A DNA stretch of 64,000 bases from Lophium mytilinum (Eukaryota). Below are positions 33,310 to 64,000 of the stretch, one piece after another (the first letter of the stretch is position 1; the number at the start of each line of letters is the position of its first letter). The notes under the pieces are model-generated. The model saw nothing but the letters and a program-made list of their open reading frames with translations. It made no database searches and was not told the origin of the DNA. The position numbers and the translations under genes were made by a program. Where the stretch lies: assembly GCA_010093605.1 (NCBI GenBank), contig MU004181.1, positions 1,240,001-1,304,000 of the forward strand, written 5' to 3'.

Positions 33310-34806
33310 ATGCTTGCTCCACGCAGAAGTCCCTCCAACCTGCTCATAGCTTTCTTTCTCCTAGCCTCGGTGCTCTTCTACTACCGCCACAGCGCCCGCG
33401 ACCTGTATACCCATCTGCCCTCGTTCGCTCGTCCTCTATCCGTTGCTGAGAATGCACCTTCAAACACCACATTAGGCTTTGGCGCCGTCGTAGTAGTGTC
33501 CAAGACTGGGTCTGACCGCCAGCCCGGCCTTCTCCAAGCCGCCAACGTCACGGGCATCGACCTCACCATCCCTTCGCAGCCCGCGTGGAGCGAAGACGAC
33601 ATCAACAAGTTCCGCGAGGGTAGGGACTCCGATATCACCGTCGGCTCTATCTACGCTTGGCTGGGCCATAACAATGCCCTTCAATGGTAATTCTTTTTGT
33701 ATTACCTCGCCCACGCAGTTCCGAGACAAACTATTCTTTCATCCATCTATACACATGGCAATGTCTCATTAATCGTTATCAGGTTTCTAAAGTCTGGTCT
33801 TGAAACAGCGCTGATCCTGGAAGATGATGTCGACTGGGACATCCAATTGCGCTCTCTGCAAGTCCCCCTGGCTGCCAATGCAGCACGCTCTATGCTATCG
33901 CCTTCGAGGTACTTGTCTAGGTTCAAAGTAGATCCTACCCAGTACTGGGGTGATACCTCCGCCTGGGACCTGCTATATCTCGGCCACTGCGGCGATTATT
34001 TCACCGCTGTTGATCACGGTGTTGGCCGCGGACATCAATACAAAGAGAACTTAACCTCGATCCCGCATAAAATCTTCAAAGACCCGTCCTTACCTGCGCG
34101 ACGAGAGCTCCACCCGTACACGGCCGCTCTATTTGATGTGTTCGAGCTCCCAGAGCAGACGCGCGCCTTCCACCGCTCCAAATTTCCGCTTTGCACCTTT
34201 GGCTACGCCATCACACGGGCCGCAGCCGAGCATCTCGTGAACGACTTGGCGCCAATCGCGAAACCAAAGACAAGTAAGAGCAAGGGTTCTCACGCCTACG
34301 ACGTGTCAATTCTCAAAGCATGCCGTAATGGCTTCGACACACCTTCTCCCACGCCTGAAAACAACCCACATCCGCACCCAGATCCCAAACTTCGCCACAA
34401 GTATGCCAGTCCCGGTCTTCGATGCTGGACACTGAATTCCGAGATTTTCCACCACATGCCCGGTGGTAGCATGATTGCACAGGTTGAAGCACAGAAGAAT
34501 CATTTTGTAGGCATTCCGCCCGTCGATCAAGTAGGAGCAGAGCAGGTGGTGCAGAGGGGGGAGACGAGCAACATTGGCTGTGGATTTTGGAGAGGCGCGT
34601 TCCGTTTTGAGGACGGTGACCAGAAAAGACTCACTTATTTACAAGAAGAAGTTGGCCGCAAGGGGAGATGTCTGAAGGAGGGCCGAGAACTGCCTAAGTC
34701 ATTGAACGAGAACAACAATGGTTCAGGAAAGGAGGGAGCGGATCATCCAAAGGAAGAGAAGAAACCCTCCGGGTCGACAGATCCAGCCGACCGGTTTACA
34801 TCTTGA
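33310..34806 (+). CDS. Glycosyltransferase family 25-like type II membrane protein, ~466 aa; exons 33310-33686, 33783-34806
   Basis: N-terminal TM anchor, N.TLGFGAVVVVS, GSIYAWLGH, ETALILEDDVDWDI, WDLLYLGHCG and PLCTFGYAIT motifs. Confidence 0.85.
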
Positions 34807-36358
34807 AACGACTGTGTTCTGCGGGGTTCATTGGGACCATCATTTGAGGCGTACATATGTTTAGCGGGGATTTCCATGGATATGGACACGGCGTTTTAGA
34901 TACGAATTTGACACCACCGCTTGGTGTTCGGGCCGCTCGAGCCTTACGGTTATTCCACATCAAAGCCAGCTAGCCTGGCGAGTCTCTACATCGGAGCTCT
35001 TATCTCATATTGGCTATATACCAATGAATACCTAGGTACCCAGTGGCCAAACCTTGGCGAATCTCAAATATATTCACTTTGTCTAAACAATCTATATGTC
35101 TTCTTCCATGCTCTCCGATATTGATGAGCCTGACGGCAGTAGTACTATCGTATGTCGGGATCAGAAAGCGGGGATCAATCTAGTCGAGACCGGCTTGCGT
35201 GCAACGTTTCAATGTCACCGATGTGCTTCTGGCGCGACCAGCGGTCATCCATGCTCTTCCCGCAGTGCTTGCCAATACTCAGCTCGTCTCTTCCAAGTGA
35301 TCACCTCATCGGCTATGAATTGTGTTGCGGGTTGCGTGGCTGCCGCATTGGGCGTAGCGTTATTTCAACCTCAAACCAGCCAGCTCGCCCGTCAACACCA
35401 GGGCCCAAGGATTTGAGACTGCAAGAGACCTTCCAGCATTGCAAAGACAAATCTCCAAGGAGCTTCTCCCTGCAATCGCCGAATTTGGTGGTAGAGGTGA
35501 GTTCTTTCTAAACCAATCCTTCACCCATATTGCTGGAACTCGACACTGACTCCCTCTAGTATTGTTTAAGGACGATTGGAAGTACATGCTAGCTCACTCA
35601 GCTGGATTACTTCCTTGTAAATGCTAGAAGCGAATACCGGTACTTGAGCGTGGTTCCTTCTATGATCGACGCCGGCGGTAGGCTAGCGCTAGCCTTCCGA
35701 TACAATGCTGCTGTTCTTGGAGAATTTGCGGACCTAAACGCCCTCAGCCTTTGACGGTTGGGCCTATCAGTCCTCTAGCTTGATGGTCACTGGTTCCACA
35801 GAGTCTTGGCTACGTATCAATGCGTTCTCTCGGAGGTAGGTGGGGCAGCCTACCGTCGGCAACGAGGACGTCTACATTGCTTCGAGTAGTCGCTCAACCA
35901 AGGCATTGTCGGCTTATGTTCCTTTATTGGGCGGCTTCTAGAAGACTTGCCAAAGACACCGAAGAGGGGTGTCGGCTGCGTGGCCACGGGGTCGTCAGCG
36001 TGCGATGGGTGCTGAAACCGGAAAGGCGCCAGGAGTGGAGAGCCATGAGGCTGGAATGGCTTTCGGTGGGCGCATGTTAGCGATCGGAAGACACCATGAA
36101 CACGAGACGGTATCTGGGGCGGCAGTGACATATGGCTGCTTCTAGAAGTGGCTTCCACGCGACTTCTAGGAGGAGGCGCGGCAATCGGATTCAAATTCGT
36201 CAATTTATCCCAACTCATACCCCTAGACGAAGCAGAACTTCCGCATCAACAGGACTACGCATCTTCTCAAGGAAACTCCATTCTTTCAGGCGAGACAATG
36301 AACCCGGCACGTGAAAGCGGTTTTCGCAGGGTGAAGATTTTGGGATGTTGTTGGGGTC

Positions 36359-36385
36359 GAACAATACTAAGAGGAACAATACTAA
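36359..36385 (+). promoter_or_regulatory. Tandem GAACAATACTAA repeat (HMG-box-type AACAAT cores) upstream of the pheromone candidate
   Basis: Exact 12-bp direct repeat at 36359-36370 and 36374-36385, ~330 nt upstream of ATG 36713. Confidence 0.5.
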
Positions 36386-36549
36386 TGGCAAATTTGCGCC
36401 ACCAAAAGCAACGCCTCGCCAATCTTCCTCGTTTCGAAGAACCAACACCAGCTTCCAGAACCGACTATCAAGATGGTTTCTTTATTCTACCTTCAAACAA
36501 GCTTCCAAGATCTACCGAGTTTCTACCAAAGCCTACACCGGGCTCTGGG

Positions 36550-36557
36550 TATAAGAA
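36550..36557 (+). promoter_or_regulatory. TATA-like box of the pheromone candidate
   Basis: TATAAGAA ~160 nt upstream of CAACATG, followed by an A/C-rich leader typical of highly expressed fungal genes. Confidence 0.5.
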
Positions 36558-36712
36558 GCTCATCGAAGTCCCCCGAGATGAACTTCCTTTCCCCACCCAC
36601 CAGAACACACAATCATTTACAGTACGAACTATCCAAACACTCAAACACACAAACCAACATCAAACTGACACAGAAACTCAGGTTTAACCAACTCACCAAC
36701 CAACCAATCAAC

Positions 36713-36763
36713 ATGTCTCAATCCGCTGGCACTACTGGAGGCTCCGGCTGCACCGTCATGTAA
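36713..36763 (+). CDS. Putative a-factor-like (CaaX lipopeptide) mating pheromone precursor, MSQSAGTTGGSGCTVM
   Basis: 16 codons ending in CaaX (CTVM) then TAA; strong start context CAACATGTCT; TATA box and A/C-rich leader; lies alone in a 3.3-kb gap between genes. Confidence 0.75.
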   Translation: MSQSAGTTGGSGCTVM

Positions 36764-38106
36764 ATTCGTTTTACATTAGACGCATGATCATCCGCGCCCA
36801 TCGGCTTCGACAATGACAACAACCCCTCAGTCGGTGACTTGGTTCCCATCCACGCCCTTCGCATGCATCTAGACGCCTCAGACCCCGGTCTGAACGCTGC
36901 CGCGGACACATGCCCTGGGTACAGCATCCGCTGCCGGACGGAACCTTGGACTGAATCGAAGCCGGATGACGACGCCCGCTACATCTGCCTCCTCCATCTC
37001 TCGCAGGGTCAGGAGCAGAGCCAGCCGCCGGAGATCGAACAACACAACCCCCAGATCCTGTCTTGAACATGTTCGACAACAACACTTCATTTCCACCAAC
37101 CCCCCCTTTCTTAGACTCCACACCACCTCAGCCAAGGACCCCGACGGTGTCAAACCCGCCGTGTGTTTCTTGGTTCGAAGGAACCCACATGCCCCGCGCG
37201 GTCTTCCTCTTTTGGGGATCTGTGCTTTTTCATACCGACATTGCCCCGACATACCTTATCTTCTCTTGGGACGCTACGAGTTACTCTTCGGCACATTCTG
37301 GACCGGGTTATTTGCGAAGGAGTTCTTCTGCTTCGTACGATTACTTTGGGACGGCGTGTGGAGATGGGGTGGAGATCTTCTTTTACCAAGCTAGCTTGGA
37401 ATTACACTCCTTTACCAATCATCCTTGATTTTTGATGCACTGTGACTATTTCTTGAAACGTGATTTCTAGCTATGCTGGTTTCCTGACACGCGAGGATCA
37501 GACAAGCCCTGATTCGTTCTGAGATCTTCTCTGTGAGAGTGAAACACTGCAAAGGGGCATTGTGCCTTTGTCCGAGAGATTCGCCGTTAGTATTGTTCTT
37601 GAGCGTCACGTGGCCTGGCCTTTGTTAGCTTCGTAGCTCTCTGGAGAAGTTGTAGATATGCCGGAAATACCTTTCCTCTGCGTTCTAATCAAGAATGTCA
37701 TCCGACACAAAGCTGTGTGCGACAGACATCAATGCACAGACATCCATCAGCAATCTCCAAAGACACGCTTGAAAAGGCAGCATATGCACATCGCCAACGG
37801 ACAAACAGTAATCTATACCACATTTTGGAATTACGGAGTAACACACCCTAACCGAGCCTCGATTGAAATTCGAAAATCTTTTGTTACACGCTGCCATGCA
37901 AGACAAAAGAGCCCAAATGAAGCCTCTTTTTCGAAAAGACCAATACGGAGAGGGGCAAAACCAAGCATACTAAAAAACAGAGGTAGAAAGTGTGGAGGCT
38001 GGGCGATGAACAAGTGTCATTGTACAAGATAGCTCGCTTTCCCCTACTGGCCGGCCCCTACTTACGCAGCCCACATAGCAAATGCTCCGCAAAAGTATCA
38101 TCTCGC

Positions 38107-39859
38107 TTATAGCATCAGCTCTAGAGGGTTCTCGATGGCCTTCTTCAGCTCCCTCATAAACTCTCCGCCAACCGCGCCGTCAACGACCTTGTGGTCGAAG
38201 CTGCTGGTGATGATGATCTGATCGTCCCACTCGACACCAACGGTACCGTCTTCTGTCTCCTCGCCGGGCACAGCAACCTTCTTTGTGGTACCGATGGCGA
38301 CGATGGTGGACTGAGGAGGGTTGATGATAGCGGTAAATCGATCAATGGCAGAGTTCATTCCCATGTTGGAGATGGTAATGGTTCCACCCTGGTACTCTTC
38401 TGGCTTGAGCTTCCCGTCGCGAGCACGCTTGCCGAGATCCTTGATCTGCGCTGAGATGGATTGCAGACCTAGAGAGCCGACGTTCGAGACGATGGGCGTC
38501 ATGAGGCCGATAGGAGTGGCAACGGCAACCGAGACATCGACGACGTTATTTTGGCGAATAACTACCTGGCCGTCGACTTCACGCCAAGAGGAGTTGGCTG
38601 CGGGAACCTTGCGACCGGCGATGGCCACTGCTTTGACGAGGAAGTCGTTGACAGAGAGCTTGTACTTTCCGTCCGAAGCGGCGTTGAGAGCTTCTCGGAG
38701 CTTGAGGAGCTTCGAGACGGAGATTGTAGAGGCGACAAAGTAATGCGGGTTCTTGTTAAAGCTCTCGGTGAGTCGGTTGGCAATGGTCTTGCGCATGCTC
38801 GTCGCGGGAATGTCTTCGTAGGTGGGAGGGCCGGTCGTGGCGCCACCTGTGGGAGGAGCTCCGCTCGTGGACTTGTACTTCTCGACATCCGACTTGGTGA
38901 TCTTGCCGCCAGGGCCGGAACCCTTGAGGCTTGCAAGAGGAACACCTTTCTCCAGCGCGAGCTTCTTGACAGCAGGGGAGTAGGGAGATCCGCGATCTAA
39001 CGACGTCTCGAGTCTGCCGCCAGTTGACGTTGATTCCTCTGGTTCTGGAGCGGGTGACGATGACTTTGGTGTTGCGGCGGTATCAGAGGTGTCCGAGGGA
39101 GGCTCGCTGGATTCAGAGGCTTCTTCCTTTGGCGCAGAGGATGGGGAGGCTTTATCTCCGCCGGCGTCCTCGGCAGAGAAGGAGTCGAAAGCAGAGACGT
39201 CCTCGCCTTCCTCAACCATAACGGCGATAGGCTGGTATTCAGTTAGTGATAGGTTCAATTGATAGCACGTGGCTTAGATCCTGTGTCCCAGACCGCTGCC
39301 AGAACGGAAGTGCTGTTGAGCAGCGTTGGAGGTACTCACACTTCCAACTGCAACGTCCTTCTCACCAGAATCTTTGAGGATCTTGGCGATGGTGCCCTCC
39401 TCTTGATACTCGAAGTCCATTTGCGCCTTGTCCGTCTCAATCTCCACCAAGACATCGCCAGGAGCTATGTTGTCGCCAACTTTCTTCTGCCATGTGCCAA
39501 TATTTCCTGCAGTCATAGTCGGGGAGAGTGCTGGCATGGTGACGACGGTATGGGCGGGAAACGCTGCCAGAGAGCTCAATTAGCTTCGACGTCTTGTTGA
39601 TCACATTGAATCCAGCACTGGAGCCTTCTTGGCTTACACTTGGAGGCATAATATCGCGACAGAGCTGAAAGCGCAGGAGTTCGTCGTCTAGCGTGCACAA
39701 ATGTCAGCGAAGCTTCAACACCAGGACATGAGCGGAAATTAGGGCTGCGTACGCGACGAATTCCTGGCACCTCGACGCGCTGGAGCCTCCTCTTAGAGCA
39801 ATTGCGCCTCGTAGACTTAATTGCCCGGAGGCGCGTGATAGGATGGTGGTCGCGGACAT
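38107..39859 (-). CDS. LAT1: Dihydrolipoamide acetyltransferase, pyruvate dehydrogenase E2, mitochondrial, 495 aa; exons 39859-39771, 39687-39638, 39563-39340, 39231-38107
   Basis: R/S-rich presequence, lipoyl domain [27 protein letters not shown]3-binding [13 protein letters not shown] and catalytic [10 protein letters not shown]. Confidence 0.96.
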
Positions 39860-46873: not shown

Positions 46874-47925
46874 AAGTTCTCTCCAAAAACAACCATGAAA
46901 CTCAAGATCCCACAAGCTGATTCATGCAGCGGTGGACCGAGTGTCAAGCCATGAACATGCAAGCAGTCGTATCAAGCAGAAATAGGCTCTTAGCGAGAGA
47001 TGGGAGGGTAGTCCCTCGATGGAGCAGGTCCTCAAGGCGCAATGTATTGGAACTCACCGAGGTAGGCAGGTATCTAATGGCACCAGGAACATCACTTTAA
47101 ACGAAATAAAGGGAGACAATGTATCATGCAGTAAGGCTATCGCACTTGAGATGATCTTCATCTGCACAGTTCCTTCCATGTCCCACGTCTTGTGATATTT
47201 TGTCAATGGGCATTATCTCTTTCTCTCTATTTAATATATTCGCCGAAGTGTTCAACGGCATCTTATATCGTATTGGCTAGAGCATTGGCCGTAGACTCTC
47301 ATTCAGCTGGATTACACCACGGCTCAGGGATGGAGAAATAGCAAAAGCTAAATGTGTGTTTTGAGGCGGCTCGGCGCGGCTTCTGACGCTAGCTCAAATC
47401 GCATTAGGTGGCAGAGATAAGGGTGGTGCATAGCGGCGAAGGAGATGTTTGTCCGACGTCTCTTTTTCCTCGCACCCATCGCAGGTGGCACATCGGCAGC
47501 GATGTGGTCTCTCTCGCACCGATCCCAATCGCCCAATTGCGCCTATCCCGACTACTTCTTTGTGCAGCCTCTGCCGCCGTCAGCCTGCATCGGGGCCTAG
47601 CCCCCAGATACACCCGCTGTGCATCAGCTTTCTCCGGGCTCAGTGGCTTGTAGTCACAATTATGACGAATGACGAAGCCCACAAGAAGTGATGCACCCCG
47701 GAACTGTGTTTCGTTTCGTATTAACTGCTTGAGCTAAGACCTGTCAACCACGCCTGCACCTTTGAGCGTGGGTTGACCGCATCGGTTGTCAATCACCCTA
47801 TTTTCTGCTCTTCTTCTCGCCTGAGTCTTTTTTCTGATTCTTTCCTACTCGCGGTCAGAGATACCCTGCTTCTAGTTCTGTGTTCGCTTGGAGCTTTTGC
47901 TGGCGTTTTCTTGGCATTTGACATC

Positions 47926-50766
47926 ATGGGTATCACGATCGATGAGGAAGAGCACACTGCCACACCACGTTTGGAAGGCGAATTGCCTCCGACACCCCCT
48001 GAAACAGTTGTCGACGGGGAGGAGCGTAAAGAAACCGAATACCCCAAGGATTTGGTTTCATTTCCCCTGCCACCTACCAGCAACCCTCCAACAAGTGTAC
48101 TTGATGTCGATAAGAAAACGCCAGATGCACATGTTCCCAGGGATCCACGGCTGATTCGACTGACTGGAGTACATCCCTTCAATGTAGAGGCACCATTATC
48201 TGCCCTATATAACGAAGGGTTTCTGACCACGCCCGAGTTGTTTTATGTCCGCAACCATGGCCCCGTGCCGCTCGTGAAGGATGAAGATATTCCGACTTGG
48301 GAGTTCACGGTAGAAGGGTGAGCATCGAAGCCTACCTATATAACTGGATCATGTGCTGATTGTAGATCAGGCTGGTGGAGAACCCTATCACCATTTCTTT
48401 GAAGGAGCTCATAGAAGAATACGAGCAATTGACCGCGCCGATCACTCTTGTTTGCGCAGGCAACAGGAGAAAGGAGCAGAACGTAGTCCGGAAAACGAAA
48501 GGCTTCTCATGGGGTGCGGCGGGTGTTTCCACAGCGCTTTGGACAGGCGTTCTCATGTCAGAGGTCATCAAACGAGCTAAGCCAATCCGAAGAGCAAGAT
48601 ATGTGTGCATGGAAGGCGCAGATAAGTTAGTGAGTCGATACTTTCGCCTGCATTGACAGTTTTACTAATCGTCCTAGCCAAACGGCTACTACGGCACTTC
48701 GGTGAAGCTGAATTGGGTAATGGACCCCAATCGCGGAATCATGCTCGCGCATAAGATGAATGGCGATATGCTCCGCCCCGATCATGGCAAGCCGCTGCGA
48801 GCTGTGATACCTGGCCAGATCGGTGGCCGAAGCGTGAAGTGGTTAAAGAGACTCATTCTCACAGACCAGCCAAGTGATAACTGGTATCATATTTACGACA
48901 ACCGAGTGCTACCGTTAGTTTTTGCAGCCCCTGTCCATTGCGTTTGCTAATGGAGACAGTACAATGGTATCCCCAGAAGAATCAACCAGCAATCCATCAT
49001 GGTGGAAAGACGATCGATACGCCATCTACGGTTTGAGCACGAATTCTGCAATTGCGTATCCTGCACATGAGGAGCAGCTGTGCATTGTAGGAGCACCACA
49101 AAAGTACCGCGTGAAAGGCTACGCATACGGTGGTGATGGGCGGAGGGTAACGCGAGTAGAGGTGTCCATTGACAAGGGTAAATCTTGGAGGTTATCTAAC
49201 ATCGATTACGCGGAGGACAGGTATCGAGAGGTCGAACAAACACTCTATGGTGGTTCTCTAGACGTGCCTTGGCGCGAGGCAAGCTTCTGCTGGTGTTTTT
49301 GGGCCATTGATATTCCAGTCGAGGAGTTGAAAAGTGCGAAGGATATCTTGGTGAGGGCGATGGATGAGAGCATGAACATCCAACCGAGAGACCTTTACTG
49401 GTCTGTTCTCGGGATGATGAACAATCCTTGGTATCGCATCACTATAAGTCATGAAAATGATTACCTGAGGTTCGAACACCCTACCCAACCAGCACTTATG
49501 CCCGGTGGGTGGATGGAAAGGGTTAAAAAGTCCGGTGGAAATCTCATGAATGGGTATTGGGGCGAGAGGATAGACGGAGCAGAGCCAGAGGCGCCAGTCG
49601 AGGAACAGGCTTCTCAAATCAAAATGACGAAGGACGATGTCAACCAGGAGATCACAATCGATGAGTTAAGGAAACACGACACGGAAGAAAGCCCATGGTT
49701 TGTGGTAAACGGAGAGGTGTACGATGGGACCGCATTTCTCAAAGGGCACCCAGGAGGTGCTCAAAGCATCATCTCTGCTGCCGGGCTCGACAGTACAGAT
49801 GAGTTCATGGCTATTCGTAAGTGCGATCATCCGAATTTGAGCCTACAAGACTAACAATACCAAGACAGCGAAACGGCAAAAGCTATGATGCCAGCGTATC
49901 ACGTTGGCTCCTTAGACGAAGTCTCACGCCGCGTGCTCAGCGAAGGCGAAGTCCAGCCGGATGCTTCAAATGAGCCTCGACCTGTCTTCCTTAATAGTCG
50001 TAGCTGGACGAAGGCAATCCTTCACTCCAAGACAAATGTGTCATGGGACACTCGCATCTTCTCCTTCAAACTCGAACACGACGAACAACCCCTCGGCCTC
50101 CCAACCGGCCAGCACCTGATGATCCGCCTCCGGGATCCCGTGACGCGAGAAGCAATCATCCGCAGCTACACCCCTATCTCGGAAGCAACCAAAAAGGGAT
50201 ACGCCGATGTACTAGTCAAGGTCTACTTAGATACTAAAGAGCGGGAAGGCGGCAAAATGACTAAAGCGATGGACGCGCTCCCAATTGGACACTTCATCGA
50301 CTTCAAGGGCCCCATCGGCAAATTCGAGTATATCGGTCGCGGTGTCTGCGCCATCAACGCGGTTAAGCGGACCGTCAAGCGCCTCATCATGATCTGTGGC
50401 GGATCTGGTATCACCCCTATCTTCCAGGTCTTCCGAGCGGTCATGCAAGATAAGGAGGATCCCACCACTTGCATTGTGCTGAATGGGAACCGCCTCGTTG
50501 AGGATATCCTCTGCAGGGAGGATCTCGACGTCTTTGCGAGGGACAATGTCGACAGGTGCAAGTTACTGTACACGCTTACGCAGGGCCCAGGTGATTGGAC
50601 GGGTCTCAGGGGGAGGATTGGAGCGCCGTTGTTGAAGGAGCACTGTGTGAAAGGGGCAGCGGGCGATACGATGGTGCTGATCTGTGGACCAGAGGCATTA
50701 GAGAAAAGTGTGCATTCTGCGTTGAATGAGCAAGGTTGGCCGGACTCGGATCTATTGTTTTTTTGA
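47926..50766 (+). CDS. niaD: Assimilatory nitrate reductase, 881 aa; exons 47926-48317, 48371-48629, 48678-48913, 48960-49816, 49865-50766
   Basis: Moco domain (RLTGVHPFN, FYVRNHG, TLVCAGNRRKEQN), cytochrome b5 HPGG, FAD/NAD(P)H domain (RSYTPIS, GGSGITP, CGP); exon sum 2646 nt. Confidence 0.97.
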
Positions 50767-51571
50767 TTTTAATCGGGTGTCTCCCAAGCATGATCATGGC
50801 ATTAGCTTTAAGGCATGGAGTTCGGGGATGAAAGGTTCATCTTCTGTCATTTTGTACTTGTAAATAGGCATGAATACAGCCGTATTGCGAAATTTCATGA
50901 AGTTGTCCACACGACACCATCACGTGTTGCAGAACTATGATATCCAACCTCCAAATCTACCAACATGATACCCCCTCACCCTCACACATCCCGTCTAGCC
51001 CCAATTTCAACACCATTATCATTATTCCTTCCCAAAGCGGCAAACCGGAGATCATCTCCGCTTATCGTCCCGCCGCCTTGGCATCGCCCAAACACCAACG
51101 CCAACACGCTCCCCTTATCAGGATCGCCCTCTAGCATCAAACATCCCCGGAGATGTCATTAACACGCAGCAGCATCCAGCCCTTCCCCGGCGTGCATCGC
51201 GGTGGCGTAGTGGGGGGAGGGCACAGGGGCATTCAGTAGCCCGCGGGGCCGGAGATGCTGCACAGGACGCGATGATGCAGTGTCTTTTTTTCACAATCCC
51301 AACGCGTGTGGTTGGCTGGACAGGTACTTGCGGGCTAATCACGCGAGGTTCTCTTGTGAGCTGTTGAGCGCTTAGTCCGCTCTCTTCTTTTCTTGAATTT
51401 CAATCTGTTGTTTCTTGAGCTTTTGGGGTTGTGCTGTGATATCCTGAGGTCGTGAAAAGCGCCTTTGAGGGACTTTGAACGTGAAGGAGGTTGAAGAGCT
51501 TATCCCAGCTATTCTGGTTGTTTTCCTAGGAGAAAAGGCCAAAGGTGCTGGTTTTGGCCTCGAAAGCGACA

Positions 51572-54500
51572 ATGTCGAATAGCGAGTGGAATGATGCGGA
51601 GGCCAACAAGCTGCCGGAAACGGTGAAGAGTCTGGAGGCCAATGGGGAGATACCTAAGGATACGAAGAGGAAGCGGGTTGTGGTTGTTGGGCTGGGGATG
51701 GTGGGCATTGCGTTCATGTGAGTTCTTCGAGGAGCATTGGCATCTGTGGAAATATCGGTCGGTTGCTAATGCGAAATGTTAAATAGCGAGAAGCTCATGA
51801 AATACGATGTCAAGCGCCGCGAGTACGATGTCATTGTCATCGGAGAGGAAGCGCATCTAGCGTATAACCGAGTGGGCTTGACGAGCTTCTTCCAGCATCG
51901 ACAAGTTGAGAATTTGTACCTGAATCCGAAAGAATGGGTATGCTGCAACTCCGATAGCTCGAATTGCCTCGGGGTGTCTTGCTAATTCTCAATCTCTATA
52001 AAGTACTCATCTATGCCTGAAGGCTCGCTGAACTACCACCTCAACACCATCGTTACCGAGATCGTGCAGGACGAGAAGGTCGTCAAGACCTCCGCCGGGG
52101 ACACCGTTCCTTATGATATCCTTGTGCTAGCTACAGGCTCCGACGCCTTGCTCCCTCGTCATACCCCTGGCCATGATGCCAAAGGCGTTTTCGTATACCG
52201 CACTATTGAGGACTTGCAAAAACTTATCGAGTATTCAGCGACAAGAAGGGGAACAACGGGCGCGGTTGTGGGTGGCGGCTTGCTCGGTCTAGAAGCCGCA
52301 AAAGCTATGATGGACTTGGAGGACTTCGGTCAGGTTAAGCTAATCGAGCGTAATCGATGGGTTCTGTCACGGCAGCTGGATGGCGATGCTGGAGGCATGG
52401 TTGTGGAGCAAGTTCAAGCACTGGGGCTTGATGTCCTGCTCAGCAAGCGGGTTGGCAAGATTTTGACCGACGAGGATAACTCCGTTTCAGGCGTGGTCTT
52501 TGAGGACGGTGAGAAGATGGACTGCTCATGTGTGTGCTTTGCAGTAAGAACGCAGGCCCCTTCGCTATACGAGAGATACTGATATCTGCAGATCGGCATC
52601 AAGGCCCGAGACGAGCTTGCACGCAAAGCAGGCATCAAATGCGCAGATAGGGGCGGCGGTATAGTCGTCAAGCCTGATCTCTGTACTTCCGTTCCAGACA
52701 TCTACGCTATTGGAGAATGCGCAAGCTGGGAGAATCAGACATTCGGCCTGATAGCTCCTGGTGTCGAGATGGCGGATGTCCTTGCCTTCAACCTTACTCA
52801 AGCAAAAGCACATGTCCCTCGAAAATTCAAGCGCCCGGATCTCAGCACGAAGCTGAAGCTTCTGGGAGTCGAAGTTGCGAGTTTTGGAGACTTCTTTGCT
52901 GACCGCGACGGGCCGAAGCAGTTGCCGGTACGTGTTGCAAAGAAGGAGGGCGTTACTGAAAGCAGGACGAGTATCAAGAAATTGACAGACGGTCCGGCGC
53001 CCCCGCCTGTGAAGGCCTTGACGTACAAGGATCCATTCCAGCAGATCTACAAGAAATATCTCTTCACGATGGACGGCAAATACTTGCTGGGTGGTATGAT
53101 GATTGGAGACACCAAAGACTACGTCAAACTGGTACCCATGGTCAAGAATCAAAAGCCGTTGGAGATTCCACCAAGCGAGCTCATCATTGGCGCTTCGAAG
53201 GGCGATGACGATGGCGATGATCTGTGAGTTGTCTTTTCCGTTTGCAGCTATATCAAACTAATGCGGCTTCACAGTGATGACGATACTCAGATCTGCTCTT
53301 GTCATAATGTTTCCAAAGGCGACGTCGTCAAGTCTGTCAAGGATGGCACCTGCAAGAGTATAGGCGACGTCAAGTCTTGCACGAAGGCTGGCACTGGATG
53401 TGGAGGCTGCATGCCTCTCGTGCAAACGATCTTCAACAAGACTATGACATCGATGGGCCAGGAAGTCAAGAATCACCTCTGCCCGCATTTCGAATACTCC
53501 CGCGCTGATCTTTTCAACATCATCTACGTCAAGAAGCTCCAAGAATTCCAAGACGTCATGAAAGAATGCGGCAAGGATCCAACATCCACTGGATGTGAAG
53601 CATGCAAACCGACCATTGGATCTATCGTCTCTTCATTGTTCAACAAACATCTTCTAGACGAGTCTCGACGTGGTCTGCAAGATACAAACGATAGATTCTT
53701 GGCTAATATACAACGTAACGGCACATTCTCCGTCATTCCTCGTGTCGCTGGCGGCGAAATCACCCCGGAAAAGCTCATCATCATCGGCACTGTCGCTAAG
53801 AAGTATGGTCTTTACACCAAGATCACTGGAGGCCAGCGCATCGATATGTTTGGCGCCAAGAAGCAAGACCTGATCTCCATCTGGACTGAACTGGTTGAGG
53901 GCGGCATGGAGAGCGGCCATGCCTATGCTAAATCCCTTCGCACGGTCAAAAGCTGTGTGGGCACAACGTGGTGTCGTTTTGGCATTGGTGACAGTGTCGG
54001 TATGGCGGTTCGACTGGAAGAGCGTTACAAGTCCATCCGCGGCCCTCACAAGTTCAAAGGCGGTGTTTCCGGCTGCGTGCGCGAATGTGCCGAAGCTCAG
54101 AACAAGGACTTCGGACTCATCGCAACAGAGAAGGGCTTCAACATCTTCGTCGGCGGGAACGGCGGCGCGAAACCGCGGCATTCAGAGCTCTTAGCGAAGG
54201 ACGTAGCCCCCGACGATATCATCCCTATCCTAGACCGCTATCTCTCTTTCTACATCCGCACAGCTGACAAGCTACAGCGCACCGCGCGGTGGATCGAGAA
54301 CCTTCCCGGCGGGATCAAGTACCTCCAAGAAGTAATACTCGAAGACAAACTCGGCATCTGCGCAGACCTCGAGCAGCAAATGGTTGACCTAGTCGGCTCC
54401 TACTTTTGCGAATGGACCGAAGTCATCAAAAACCCCGCCCGCCGCGCGCTCTTCTCCCAATTCGCAAACACGTCCGACAACATCGTCGACACCATCGAGC

Positions 54501-55156
54501 CCACCGTCGAGCGCGGCCAAGCGCGGCCCTCGTACTGGCCCCAAGACTCCGTGAAAGAAGACTTCCGCGGCACCAAGTGGACCGAACTCGCCTGGCAGCC
54601 CATCGTGCTAGCCGCGGAGTTCAAAGACACGCCGACTGGCGACTCGAAGGCTGTCAAGCGCGGCGACACCCAGCTCGCTGTCTTCAAGGTCCGCGGGACG
54701 TATTACTGCACGCAGCAGATGTGTCCGCACAAGCGCGCCTTCGTGCTCTCCGATGGCCTTATTGGCGACGACCGAGAGAAGAACAAGCTGTGGGTCAGCT
54801 GCCCGTATCACAAGCGCAACTACGAGCTTGGTGGCGCGGACGCGGGGAAGTGCGGGAACGACGACGAGGTCAATATCGCGACGTTCCCGGTTGAGGAACG
54901 CGAGGATGGGTGGGTGTATGTGAAGCTGCCGCCGGTGGAGGAGCTGGACGGCGTGCTGGGGACGGAGAAGTGGCGGATTAAAAAGAGCGAGACGGATGAT
55001 CCCTATGTCGAGTTAGATAAGAAGCTGAAGACGGTGGAGATGAAGGGGAGGAAGAGCACGAAAGCGAGCCATTTGGAGAGTGGGAAGGGGCAGGAGGGCG
55101 CCGCGGCCGCGATTTTGGCGGGAGGTGAGAGAGGTGCTGGGGGGTTGGATTGGTGA
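51572..55156 (+). CDS. niiA: Nitrite reductase [NAD(P)H], ~1116 aa; exons 51572-51717, 51787-51937, 52004-52543, 52592-53223, 53275-55156
   Basis: VVVGLGMVG and [10 protein letters not shown] dinucleotide folds, BFD-like CSCHNV..GTGCGGC, siroheme/4Fe-4[18 protein letters not shown]-terminal Rieske CPHK..CPYH; exon sum 3351 nt. Confidence 0.97.
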
Positions 55157-61323: not shown

Positions 61324-62903
61324 CTACTGCGGGGCCCTCTCAACATCCTCGCCCCTAATCGAGCCACTCTGCACAATCTTCTGAATCTCAGCACGGTCCT
61401 TCTTCACCGCCTCATTCATATCCTCATCATGCGAAACTTCAAAATTGCGGTTCCGGAACTCCGGCCCCAAGATCGTCAACACGATAGTGTACGCGTACAC
61501 GCAGCCCATAAAGATACAGATGACCTTGCCGTACGCGTACCGGGGAATCTCCTTCTTGCCCGCGATCTTCGGCGGCAGCGGGAAGCGCTCACCAATCGTT
61601 GCCTCGATGGTGCTGGAAGCGGATGAAACGAGGTTTCCGAGCTGGTACGAGGTTCCAACGACAAAGGTGCGGAACGAGCCTGGTGACATCTCCATGAGAT
61701 GGATGGGGATGACGCCCCACGCGCCCTGCACGCAGAACTGCTCGAAGAAGGCCGGGGCGATGATTTTGGTGTCGGTGACGAAGCAGTAGGGGTACAGCAG
61801 CGCGCCGCCGACAATGGAGATGAAGACGATGCTGAAGCGGCGGCCGAAGATCTGAGAGCAGTACCCGATCACGGTGCCGCCGCTCATGGCGCCCAGGTTG
61901 GCGACGACCTGGGTGACGGTGACGGCGTTGGGGCTGAAGTCGTATTGGTTCGTGAGCATGGTTGGGTAGAGATCTTGGGAGCCATGAGACTGGTTTGATT
62001 AGTTAGTGAGTTGAAACTATCAGCCTTCCGAAGATCGAAACTTACCATGAAGTTGAATCCAGCCATCAGTAAGACCATGTAGATCAGTATGAGCCAGTGC
62101 TTCTTCAGGGCGACTTTGCCTTCGGCAATGAAGGTGTGCGCGACGTTGTGGCCTGCTTTTCGGACCCTTTCACGCTCTTGGAAGGCCTGTGTCTCGGGAA
62201 GCAAGAGACGGAAGATGATGAGCAGAACTGGAGGTCCCGCACCGAACCAGAACAGCGGGCGCCATTCGTGGCCGACGGTGTCCACGAAGGCTCTCGAGAA
62301 AACAGTCGCGAGCAAATATCCAAACGCGTAGCCCTGTTGCAGCATACCGGAGATGATACCTCGAGCAGCCGGCGGGCAATCTTCTAGGGCCGTAGCAGCA
62401 ACGTTCCCGTACAGTCCACCCATGGCAATCCCAAAGAGCGCGCGCACGCCCAAGAATTGGTGGTAGGTGTTGCAGAATCCGGTACTCATCTCCAGGATAA
62501 TGAAAAGGACATTGTTGACAATGAAGGGCCACTTGCGTCCAAATCGATCAGCGGCAATTCCGAAGGTGATAGCACCGACGGATCGCAGCATCAGTACGAG
62601 GGTGATGCCCCACGTGATGTCCTTTTTGCTGACATCAAAGGTCTCGGCGAGGTTTTCGACGGTCAAAGAGACAGTGAAGAAATCGAAGGCGTCCCAGGAC
62701 CATGCAAAGAAAGAGATCAGGAAAAACATCCATTGCTGCTTGTTGAGAAGGGCGAGCAGCTTGAAGGGATTCTCAGCCTTGTCGAGGGTGGGCATGAGGG
62801 TGGAAAAGCGGGTGGCTGCATAGCGGCCGGCGCTCATTTTCGGGGTTTCAGGTTCACCGGAGCCCAGATGGGCATTGTACTCGGTCTCATTTTTCTCGTC
62901 CAT
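61324..62903 (-). CDS. JEN1: MFS carboxylic-acid transporter (Jen1/sialate:H+ symporter family), 507 aa; exons 62903-62046, 61989-61324
   Basis: WDAFDFFTV, ADRFGRKWPF, SGMLQQGYAFGYLLA, spliced signature NFMSHGSQDLYPT and QGAWGVIPIHLME. TATATAAA on the minus strand at ~62974-62981. Confidence 0.93.
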
Positions 62904-64000
62904 GATGGCTGCTGTCGAAGGTCTGCTGTCGAGGCTTGGAGGTAGAGTCGGAAAATAGGTGATCCGGTCTGGATTTATATAGGCACGCTTTGGGCGAACC
63001 ACGGTTGCCGAACAATAGTGAATGCAGTCAGAAAACACCGACGGCGTTAGGGATGTGCTCAAGCCACGGGTCGAGCGTTCTCGAGCTCTGCCGTGTCAAC
63101 GAGTATTTCCCGGGGAATTCAGGTAGCGCCACCTAGTGAGGATGCAGAAAGTCAGGCTGGCTGCACTGTTGGTGTGTCTCGCTGTCCGAGGCCGGGAGGA
63201 GTTGGCTTCTTTATGGTGCGCTGATCGTTCCATCCCTTGTGTTTGGTGGCATTCCATGGTCCATCCAAGCAGTACGATGACTGACGCCCAGCGCCGTCCC
63301 CGCCAACCCCGCAGGCGGGTGCATGCATTCACCCAATCATTCGGCCCGACCATCGCCACGGCCGGCTCGGTATGCCTAGAAACAGTTTGGTGGGCCGATA
63401 AGCGTTGCTCCACACGGGGAGCCGGTGTGGCACGCGCGCATAGAAGACTCTCCCGGGGTTCCAAGCACGGCTAAGCTGCACACCAACGGGTCAATACTTG
63501 CAGGCTCGTCTTGGCAGCCTTGCTTGATACACCAAGATATTTGAAGTGTACACTACCTACGAGATGGAGATGCTCATGAGTCAAGTCAGGATAAATCTAA
63601 TGAGTATTCAACCTCCTTTGCAGAACTGAAATGGTGCTTCACACATCGTGTTACCGTATATGATCATACGAATAAACCTGGGGATCGTGAAGGATGGAGG
63701 ATTGTGGAGAGTGGGGAGAGTGGTGTTGCGCAACATCCTTGTTCAGTCAGAAATGGCTCACTGCAGAGAGCCTACGGGGGCTAGCAAGGGACGACGATGA
63801 TCTTCTGCCGAGGTTTGCTCCAAGCGCCGTTCAACCTGCATTTCAAAGTGCTGTACTAGAGCTATTGTGGTGGCTTCATCGTCTCGACGACTGGGTGCCC
63901 AGACCCAGGACTTCAATCCTTCTGTGTGACTGGCAGCCCGCTCTCCAGCGCCATGTAACGTCGACTGCAAGGCAGGCATGCCCGGCACTTGGGTTTCATA

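Follow-up and report, generated by a model that had tools for sequence, protein, structure and literature searches.

A 16-codon CaaX reading frame on a spliced, conserved mRNA of Lophium mytilinum: a candidate a-class pheromone precursor gene in the Dothideomycetes

The a-class pheromones of ascomycetes are small lipopeptides, and in yeast their production from MFA1 and MFA2 involves farnesylation of a CaaX box, cleavage of aaX, methylation and export by an ABC transporter. The yeast precursors are 36-38 amino acids (aa) long and carry an N-terminal extension that is removed in two steps, while the mature a-factor has 12 residues. Among filamentous ascomycetes, a-factor genes are stated to have been known only from Sordariomycetes until a Leotiomycete candidate was described, earlier efforts in other classes having failed (PMC10569646). 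Here we analyze a 16-codon open reading frame (ORF) ending in a CaaX box, located at positions 36713-36763 (+ strand) of a 64,000-nucleotide (nt) stretch of the Lophium mytilinum genome (assembly GCA_010093605.1, contig MU004181.1, positions 1,240,001 to 1,304,000; hereafter the window). An earlier note, made from the letters of the window, had proposed this micro-ORF as an a-class pheromone gene. The ORF was found to be the first AUG of a discrete, spliced mRNA, and judging from its sequence and from analogy with described systems it is probably a real, although unusually short, precursor gene of an a-class lipopeptide pheromone. In ∼8.1 million open-access PMC papers and 0.36 million preprints (subscription-only papers lay outside the search) no report of an a-class or CaaX pheromone in any Dothideomycete was found. 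Genes of this kind have been described before; the novelty of what we regard as a credible candidate lies in its class, the Dothideomycetes, and in its minimal form without a leader.

The closest described peptides are those of Fusarium and Verticillium. The synthetic a-factor of F. graminearum is QKPGYPLSCTVM, with the CaaX box CTVM (PMC9769807), and that of F. oxysporum is ANGQTPGYPLSCTVM, again with CTVM (PMC11077750); CTVM is therefore an established a-factor CaaX box. The V. dahliae precursor VdPpg2 (66 aa) contains five undecapeptide repeats, with NGGGHSGCAIM as the synthetic unit, and its peptide, which has no aromatic residue, was assayed for chemotropism (PMC11077750). The aromatic GY motif is thus not universal, since V. 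dahliae Ppg2 lacks it. In Leotiomycetes the candidates (the Botrytis cinerea BCIN_13g03330 family) are 45-64 aa long, end mostly in CTVM, have an N-terminus rich in Ser and Thr, and contain GY in 87 cases (Wilson et al. 2023, PMC10569646). The same paper reports GY for Sordariomycetes as well, and states that expression of the Leotiomycete CTVM candidate is independent of mating type, its authors doubting a role in mating (PMC10569646).

At the level of transcripts, the hpp1 cDNA of 591 nt consists of an 82-nt 5′ untranslated region (UTR), a 144-nt ORF and a 347-nt 3′UTR (Schmoll et al. 2010, PMC3068285). Long 3′UTRs are also given there for mfa-1, mf2-1, MF1-1 and ppg2, and extra ORFs within the 3′UTR are mentioned (PMC3068285). 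Other papers place the Sordariomycete a-factor gene between the genes for cyanase and EBP2 (PMC8661429), include a hydrophobic N-terminus among the features used to recognize a-factors in Ceratocystidaceae (PMC13037118), describe the Podospora pheromone genes MFM and MFP as intron-less, and report a single gene per genome for the Ste6-type ABC transporter in all Dothideomycetes examined (PMC6071951).

The micro-ORF of L. mytilinum extends from an ATG at 36713 to a TAA at 36761-36763. Its codons (ATG TCT CAA TCC GCT GGC ACT ACT GGA GGC TCC GGC TGC ACC GTC ATG TAA) translate as MSQSAGTTGGSGCTVM*, exactly as the earlier note had read them. Like precursors of the a-factor class, it is thus very short and has its CaaX box immediately next to the stop codon. 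The box, Cys13-Thr-Val-Met (36749..36760, + strand), is the predicted site of farnesylation, aaX cleavage and carboxymethylation, and belongs to the type with Met at the X position that is found in Pezizomycotina a-factors (CVVM, CVIM, CTVM, CIVM). The start codon lies in the context CAACATGTC, with CAAC at -4 to -1, and follows an A/C-rich leader, two features that had also been described correctly. By inspection, the 16 residues contain no secretion signal peptide; they are rich in Gly, Ser, Thr, Ala and Gln and include no hydrophobic stretch.

The Fusarium a-factor (the ppg2 product) shares with the micro-ORF the CTVM directly before the stop, a short precursor of non-secretory type and a Ser that precedes the Cys immediately or nearly so. 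In contrast, the Fusarium peptides carry a GY(P) aromatic motif, while the micro-ORF peptide has none, and the Fusarium and Verticillium precursors contain repeats (h-type), whereas the micro-ORF encodes one copy in 16 codons; homology between them is not demonstrable by alignment. VdPpg2 is Gly-rich like the micro-ORF peptide, has the same SGC followed by aaM and likewise lacks an aromatic residue, which shows that an a-type pheromone can function with a composition of this kind. It differs in being repetitive, in having internal CaaX-like motifs, in being four times longer and in coming from Sordariomycetes. The Leotiomycete candidates, compared by their published description only, resemble the micro-gene in ending mostly in CTVM, in the Ser/Thr-rich N-terminus, and in being usually unannotated and well expressed in vegetative material; they differ in their annotated length of 45-64 aa and in the GY of the 87 mentioned above.

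How often such an ORF would arise by chance was estimated from the window itself. Among its 1002 ATG-initiated ORFs of 10-45 codons on both strands, just one, the micro-ORF, has a broadly defined farnesyl-type CaaX ending. In 300 block shuffles the mean number of such ORFs was 1.09, and 180 of the shuffles contained at least one, so that the ORF by itself is not beyond chance. For the narrow ending C[VIT][VI]M, a pattern picked after CTVM had been seen, one ORF was observed against a shuffle mean of 0.013 (at least one in 3 of 300 shuffles), which corresponds to a chance rate of 1.3e-5 per short ORF. When scaled to the 44-46 million letters of contigs in the likely source runs, approximately nine chance C[VIT][VI]M ORFs would be expected genome-wide, and independent evidence is therefore required. 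The codon adaptation of the micro-ORF (0.835) exceeded that of all 11 reference genes of the window (0.717-0.827) and placed it in the top 2.6% of 608 short ORFs. However, values as high were found in 9.9% of 48-nt frames of the transcript and in 5.9% of random sequences of local composition. This signal was counted as weak because it fades under local-composition controls on the C-rich transcript.

The independent evidence came from RNA. According to a sequencing-run index, 24 runs from 19 studies contain part of the region 36300-37500, and ten of them are recorded as RNA. Four runs (X3, X4, X5 and X8) were aligned to 35500-38200; all of these consist of contigs, so read depth was not used. 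X3 (RNA type guessed) yielded one contig of 10,755 nt without a single letter differing from the window. This contig lacks 36622-36681 (60 nt, GT..AG), with 36621 joined directly to 36682, and also 37614-37669 (56 nt, CT..AC, i.e., GT..AG on the minus strand), while a third intron, 35498-35559, is represented by a loose end at 35558. The X3 contig is thus derived from RNA, since DNA would keep the introns.

The other three runs delimit the transcript. Within the aligned region, X4 (a moss metatranscriptome) covers only 36700-37354, X5 (RNA type guessed) only 36643-37381, and X8 (a leaf-litter metatranscriptome) 36682-37371 and, separately, the end of the neighboring gene LAT1 from 37957. The segments 35500-36640 and 37411-37956 served as a silent-flank control: they are uncovered in all three runs alike, which argues against carry-over of DNA. 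One contig of X8 belongs to a diverged relative, with 16 of 204 nt differing from the window. Its match starts exactly at 36682 and is preceded by 26 unmatched letters resembling the end of exon 1. This contig is joined at 36682, indicating that the same splice acceptor is used in the diverged relative. The regular fungal GT..AG intron assigns the transcript to the + strand. The transcript that the earlier note had predicted over the ORF therefore exists, as a discrete, spliced + strand mRNA of ∼0.7 kb in which the ORF is the 5′-most AUG.

The anatomy of this mRNA is as follows. Exon 1 (36596..36621) is 5′UTR; its start is uncertain and its end exact, as given by the X3 joint and the 26-nt loose end of X8. 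It is followed by a 60-nt 5′UTR intron (36622..36681), which begins with GTACGA, has a CTGAC branch site, ends with AG, and is documented by the X3 skip and the X8 acceptor. The sequence then continues with a 31-nt exon 2 leader (36682..36712), A/C-rich, devoid of ATG and ending in CAAC. A TATA-like box, TATAAGAA, was found at 36550..36557 (+ strand), 163 nt before the ATG, in agreement with the ∼160 nt given in the earlier note, and ∼46 nt before the furthest 5′ extent of the RNA. In an mRNA model starting near 36596 (the furthest 5′ extent seen) and lacking the intron, the micro-ORF is the first ATG, at nucleotide 58 of ∼745, and so is 5′-proximal on a transcribed mRNA of its own. The stop codon is followed by an unusually long 3′UTR of ∼620 nt (36764..37381, + strand), bounded by contig ends and containing indels in the relatives. 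Across three studies, the last contig positions are 37354, 37371, 37371 and 37381, which hints weakly at where the 3′ end lies.

A TATA box, a 5′UTR intron, a micro-ORF at the first AUG and a long 3′UTR constitute a recognizable gene layout. The placement of the ORF at the 5′-most AUG, with the remainder of the mRNA as non-coding 3′UTR, is the arrangement published for a-type pheromone genes. The same tiny 5′-proximal CaaX ORF on an mRNA that is mostly 3′UTR is found in Neurospora crassa mfa-1, Sordaria ppg2, Magnaporthe MF1-1 and Cryphonectria mf2-1. The canonical Sordariomycete a-type peptides have GY, which the micro-ORF lacks, and Podospora MFM and MFP are intron-less, in contrast to the micro-gene with its 5′UTR intron.

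An upstream ATG at 36578..36580 (+ strand) is in frame with the micro-ORF in both the unspliced and the spliced sequence. A start at this codon in exon 1 would give a precursor of 41 codons after splicing, with a conventional N-terminal extension and the same C-terminus; the frame is open across the splice junction, the G at -3 is an acceptable start context, and the length would fit classical a-factor precursors. Yet chance alone would leave a frame of 25 A/C-rich codons open, and the sole spliced contig that reaches exon 1 extends 26 nt before the donor, to ∼36596. Since no more than 21 nt separate this ATG from the TATA box upstream of it, it is probably outside the mRNA. We therefore consider the longer precursor unlikely. 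It should be noted that it is a variant of the pheromone reading, and the probability we assign to it is not to be added to those of that reading and of its two main alternatives discussed below.

The region downstream of the micro-ORF has accumulated frame-breaking changes. Among the differences listed for the X4, X5 and X8 contigs, deletions of 1 or 2 nt occur at least at 37066, 37067, 37079, 37082, 37084, 37100, 37141, 37148, 37206 and 37259, and a 3-nt deletion is listed at 37162. These indels indicate that the ∼620-nt stretch after the micro-ORF is non-coding. Pfam gave no family for the five ORFs located on or antisense to the transcript (36473-37428), nor for a neighboring ORF at 37658-38032.

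One could still suppose that the micro-ORF is an upstream ORF and that the real product comes from a 67-codon ORF (36863-37066) or from one antisense to the transcript (36771-37070). The frame-shifting indels of the relatives begin exactly at 37066-37067, where the 67-codon ORF has its stop; two deletions inside this ORF (57 nt and 9 nt) preserve the frame, and its frame has the highest codon-adaptation windows of the transcript. Its nine listed substitutions are of another kind, however, with six changing a residue, one removing the stop and two silent, and its ATG is only the fifth in the mRNA model. It has no Pfam match, its language-model recognition score was 1160 (91 of 100 known-family proteins reached 2300) with a best look-alike of 0.77, and a phmmer search of 1.84 billion representative proteins returned only two matches, both translated tandem repeats. 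The antisense ORF has 14 changes, eight of them non-synonymous, and its second codon is hit by the deletions at 37066 and 37067. The 67-codon ORF was rejected as the real product on its substitutions, the rank of its ATG, its recognition score and the matches confined to tandem repeats, and we regard this reading as a whole as highly improbable.

The distribution of changes along the transcript is uneven. All 19 substitutions and all five indels listed for X5, as well as all seven substitutions listed for X4, are located at or after 36814. Differences near contig ends are omitted from these counts (the X5 contig has 21 differing letters against 19 listed, and the X4 contig eight against seven). 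The micro-ORF is identical to the window in X3 and in record 5 of X8 (36694-36811), and no difference within it is listed for X4 or X5, although the X4 contig begins at 36700 and an unlisted difference in the first codons is possible there. The relatives with an unchanged ORF are only ∼1-3% diverged, and hence the conservation of its ATG, frame, Cys and stop is seen at close range.

The 5′ segment that is invariant in X5, block A (171 nt, 36643..36813, + strand), comprises the 3′ part of the intron, the leader, the ORF and 50 nt past the stop. When the 24 changes of X5 are placed uniformly over its 739 nt, the probability of no change in block A is 0.0018, with the boundaries of the block set post hoc. 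A second block, B (145 nt, 36921..37065, + strand), lies within the 3′UTR; it is unchanged in X4 and X5, its flanks on either side vary, and the frame-breaking indels begin directly after it. Its corresponding probability is 0.0053, again with post hoc boundaries. Block B may be a functional 3′UTR element; no convincing ORF was found in it. The micro-ORF lies in the most conserved part of the transcript, with the constraint seen at the level of nucleotides.

Twenty further runs contain 12-25% of the sampled words of 36300-37500, a share close to the size of block A. Among them are metatranscriptomes from soil, litter, freshwater and groundwater as well as several organisms under different names; all were matched by shared words only and set aside as evidence of expression or habitat. 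The 5′ block may be widely shared across these runs, which we report as a lead. A scan of metagenome contigs with a wobble-degenerate pattern of the last eight codons plus stop gave two loci, both chance matches: they are GC-rich and prokaryote-looking by eye, and in each the matched stretch has TGG at its end and runs into the start of a gene on the opposite strand.

Such a pattern of constraint could also be produced by a non-coding RNA, or an RNA acting via its conserved blocks, in which the CaaX ORF is coincidental. The conservation of block A covers sequence outside the ORF, block B is equally conserved, roughly one broad CaaX ORF per window is expected, and controls for local composition leave a weak codon signal, all of which this explanation accommodates. 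It does not account as easily for a C[VIT][VI]M ending at 1.3e-5 per random short ORF, for the placement of the CTVM ORF at the first AUG in a good start context, or for a layout equal to that of known a-type pheromone genes. In addition, Rfam gave no match in 35000-38500 at E up to 1, and the folds of block A (z = +0.33) and of block B (z = +0.99) are no more stable than those of shuffled sequences. We judge a purely RNA-level function to be an improbable, though not negligible, alternative.

The balance was struck by comparing two expectations. A chance ORF of this type would arise at 1.3e-5 per ORF multiplied by the few such transcripts in a window, whereas one or two true genes per genome correspond to ∼1e-3 per window. 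Here, the C[VIT][VI]M ORF also opens at the first AUG of its mRNA, which is discrete, spliced, conserved and, apart from this ORF, non-coding, and which was seen in three RNA data sets; a true gene is therefore favored. The pheromone assignment made in the earlier note is supported in part, by the transcript, the layout and the CTVM box, while two usual features of a-factors, the GY motif and the hydrophobic N-terminus, are absent.

Several observations weigh against the pheromone interpretation. The Cys is preceded by GGSG instead of the GY or aromatic motif used by others to recognize a-factors, the N-terminus MSQSAG is hydrophilic, and 16 codons is below the published precursor lengths that were compared (35-109 aa in Colletotrichum, 45-64 in Leotiomycetes, 48 in hpp1 and 66 in VdPpg2). 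The shuffle count of broad CaaX ORFs and the codon-adaptation controls given above belong on this side as well. So does the conservation: the probability of no change is 0.059 for the leader plus ORF and 0.18 for the 51-nt ORF alone, the constraint in block A extends over leader, intron and post-stop sequence and is not specific to coding, block B is as conserved without the ORF, and an ORF invariant in near relatives yields no contrast between synonymous and non-synonymous changes. A protein database contained no protein of 30-107 aa sharing three 5-residue words with the 61-residue in-frame extension of the peptide, ORFs below 30 aa not being included in that database. Finally, no cyanase or EBP2 domain was found in the 32 ORFs scanned of the 77 in the window that are 130 aa or longer; conservation of the cyanase-EBP2 synteny across classes is not expected. 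Our confidence in the pheromone reading is tempered by the nature of the support, which is at the level of RNA and sequence and comes from very close relatives, by the missing GY, and by the uncertain mating role of the Leotiomycete precedent.

By analogy with MFA1/2, mfa-1 and ppg2, a farnesyltransferase would modify Cys13 of the cytosolic peptide; Met at the X position directs farnesylation. The residues TVM would then be removed by a protease of the Rce1/Ste24 type, the new C-terminal Cys would be carboxymethylated by a Ste14-type enzyme, and the lipopeptide would be exported via the Ste6-type ABC transporter and recognized by the partner through a Ste3-class receptor. Once the initiator Met and aaX are lost, 12 residues would be left, the number found in mature yeast a-factor, and N-terminal proteolysis may be unnecessary, given that only these 12 residues remain. 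In this respect the micro-ORF, which has essentially no N-terminal extension, differs from the MFA1 and MFA2 precursors.

A stronger formulation is that this is the first a-class pheromone gene of a Dothideomycete and also encodes the shortest, essentially leaderless, a-factor precursor known. We put this forward tentatively, as a claim with less than an even chance of being right. The product would be a 12-residue, Gly/Ser/Thr-rich farnesyl-cysteine methyl ester made without N-terminal cleavage of the Ste24/Axl1 type. If this were true, the length of 45-64 aa given for candidates from other classes may partly result from reading too far upstream, through a 5′UTR and an intron; at the present locus, the unspliced in-frame reading from ATG 36578 amounts to 61 codons.

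The peptide could also be translated and prenylated without any role in mating, as an autocrine or quorum-type signal or as a membrane-anchored micropeptide whose expression does not depend on mating type. The mating-type-independent expression of the Leotiomycete CTVM candidate, and the doubts of its authors about mating, would fit such a role (PMC10569646), as would the non-mating uses of pheromone signaling cited for Fusarium oxysporum. The transcript was, moreover, assembled from moss and leaf-litter metatranscriptomes, i.e., from vegetative environmental material. We nevertheless assign this possibility a low probability, and retain the a-class mating pheromone as the favored interpretation.

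The micro-gene is flanked by a GT25-like gene (+ strand, ending at 34806) and by LAT1 (minus strand, stop at 38107), in contrast to the cyanase and EBP2 genes of Sordariomycetes. The former has no Pfam match, and the sole basis of its label is that its look-alike clusters in a language-model comparison bear the name GT25 (0.94). LAT1 has the Pfam domains 2-oxoacid_dh (E 5.6e-72), E3_binding and Biotin_lipoyl. The best named relatives of its 370-residue ORF are from Zopfia rhizophila (82%), Lophiostoma macrostomum (80%) and Clohesyomyces aquaticus (78%), followed by Lophiotrema nucula and Lindgomyces ingoldianus (both 77%) and by other Dothideomycete orders (72-75%). No match was above 82%, so that the annotated proteins searched do not include those of the source organism itself, and this one protein places the window in the Dothideomycetes.

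The interval between the two genes had been described as a gene-free gap of 3.3 kb. The position of the micro-ORF in it is right, but the interval is not gene-free, as it contains two further spliced transcripts. One is a + strand transcript at 35358-35629, whose intron (35498-35559) is removed in X3 by joining 35497 to 35560. Its frame across the junction looks protein-like, with a stop at 35627-35629, and the ORF at 35096-35413 has no Pfam match. The other is marked by the minus-strand intron of 56 nt at 37614-37669 (GTATTT ... GCTAAC ... CAG), in the stretch that separates the 3′ end of the mRNA from the LAT1 stop. This intron belongs either to a long, spliced 3′UTR of LAT1 or to a separate convergent non-coding transcript, with no notable ORF across it. 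More distantly, a nitrate-assimilation neighborhood was observed at 47725-55156 and 61324-63095. It includes pieces of nitrate reductase (Mo-co dimerisation, cytochrome b5 and FAD/NAD-binding domains), a nitrite reductase (Pyr_redox_2, NIR_SIR, BFD-like and Rieske domains) and a transporter of the MFS/sugar type on the minus strand.

The flanks of the micro-gene contain short repeats. A 12-mer, GAACAATACTAA, occurs in the promoter region, ∼340 nt before the ATG, as two exact tandem copies (36359-36370 and 36374-36385, + strand), and a third copy is inverted (37587-37598, minus strand), ∼200 nt past the 3′ end of the mRNA. With up to one mismatch, it has three matches in the 64 kb, all beside the micro-gene; the mean in shuffled sequences was 0.17, and three matches were reached in 0 of 100 shuffles. 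From their sequence, the tandem copies, with their AACAAT core, are a candidate cis element. The core is one that we take to be HMG-box-like, and the TACTAA of the same 12-mer presumably resembles an intron branch site. Ste12-type sites, for which we assumed the motif TGAAACA, number nine in the window against 8.98 expected, and none was found in the promoter. Further upstream, a 15-mer with the palindromic core CTTCTAGAAG is repeated at 35930-35944, 36134-36148 and 36158-36172; the exact 11-mer GCTTCTAGAAG occurs in the window only at 35934 and 36138. With both strands and one mismatch allowed, five matches were counted against 1.47 expected. We presume this repeat to be heat-shock-element-like.

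The Dothideomycetes include many crop pathogens and many species that are supposedly asexual. The sequence of the peptide, together with the layout of its gene, provides a search image for the rest of this class. The peptide is directly synthesizable, as a ligand for assays of Ste3-class receptors and for tests of cryptic sexuality.

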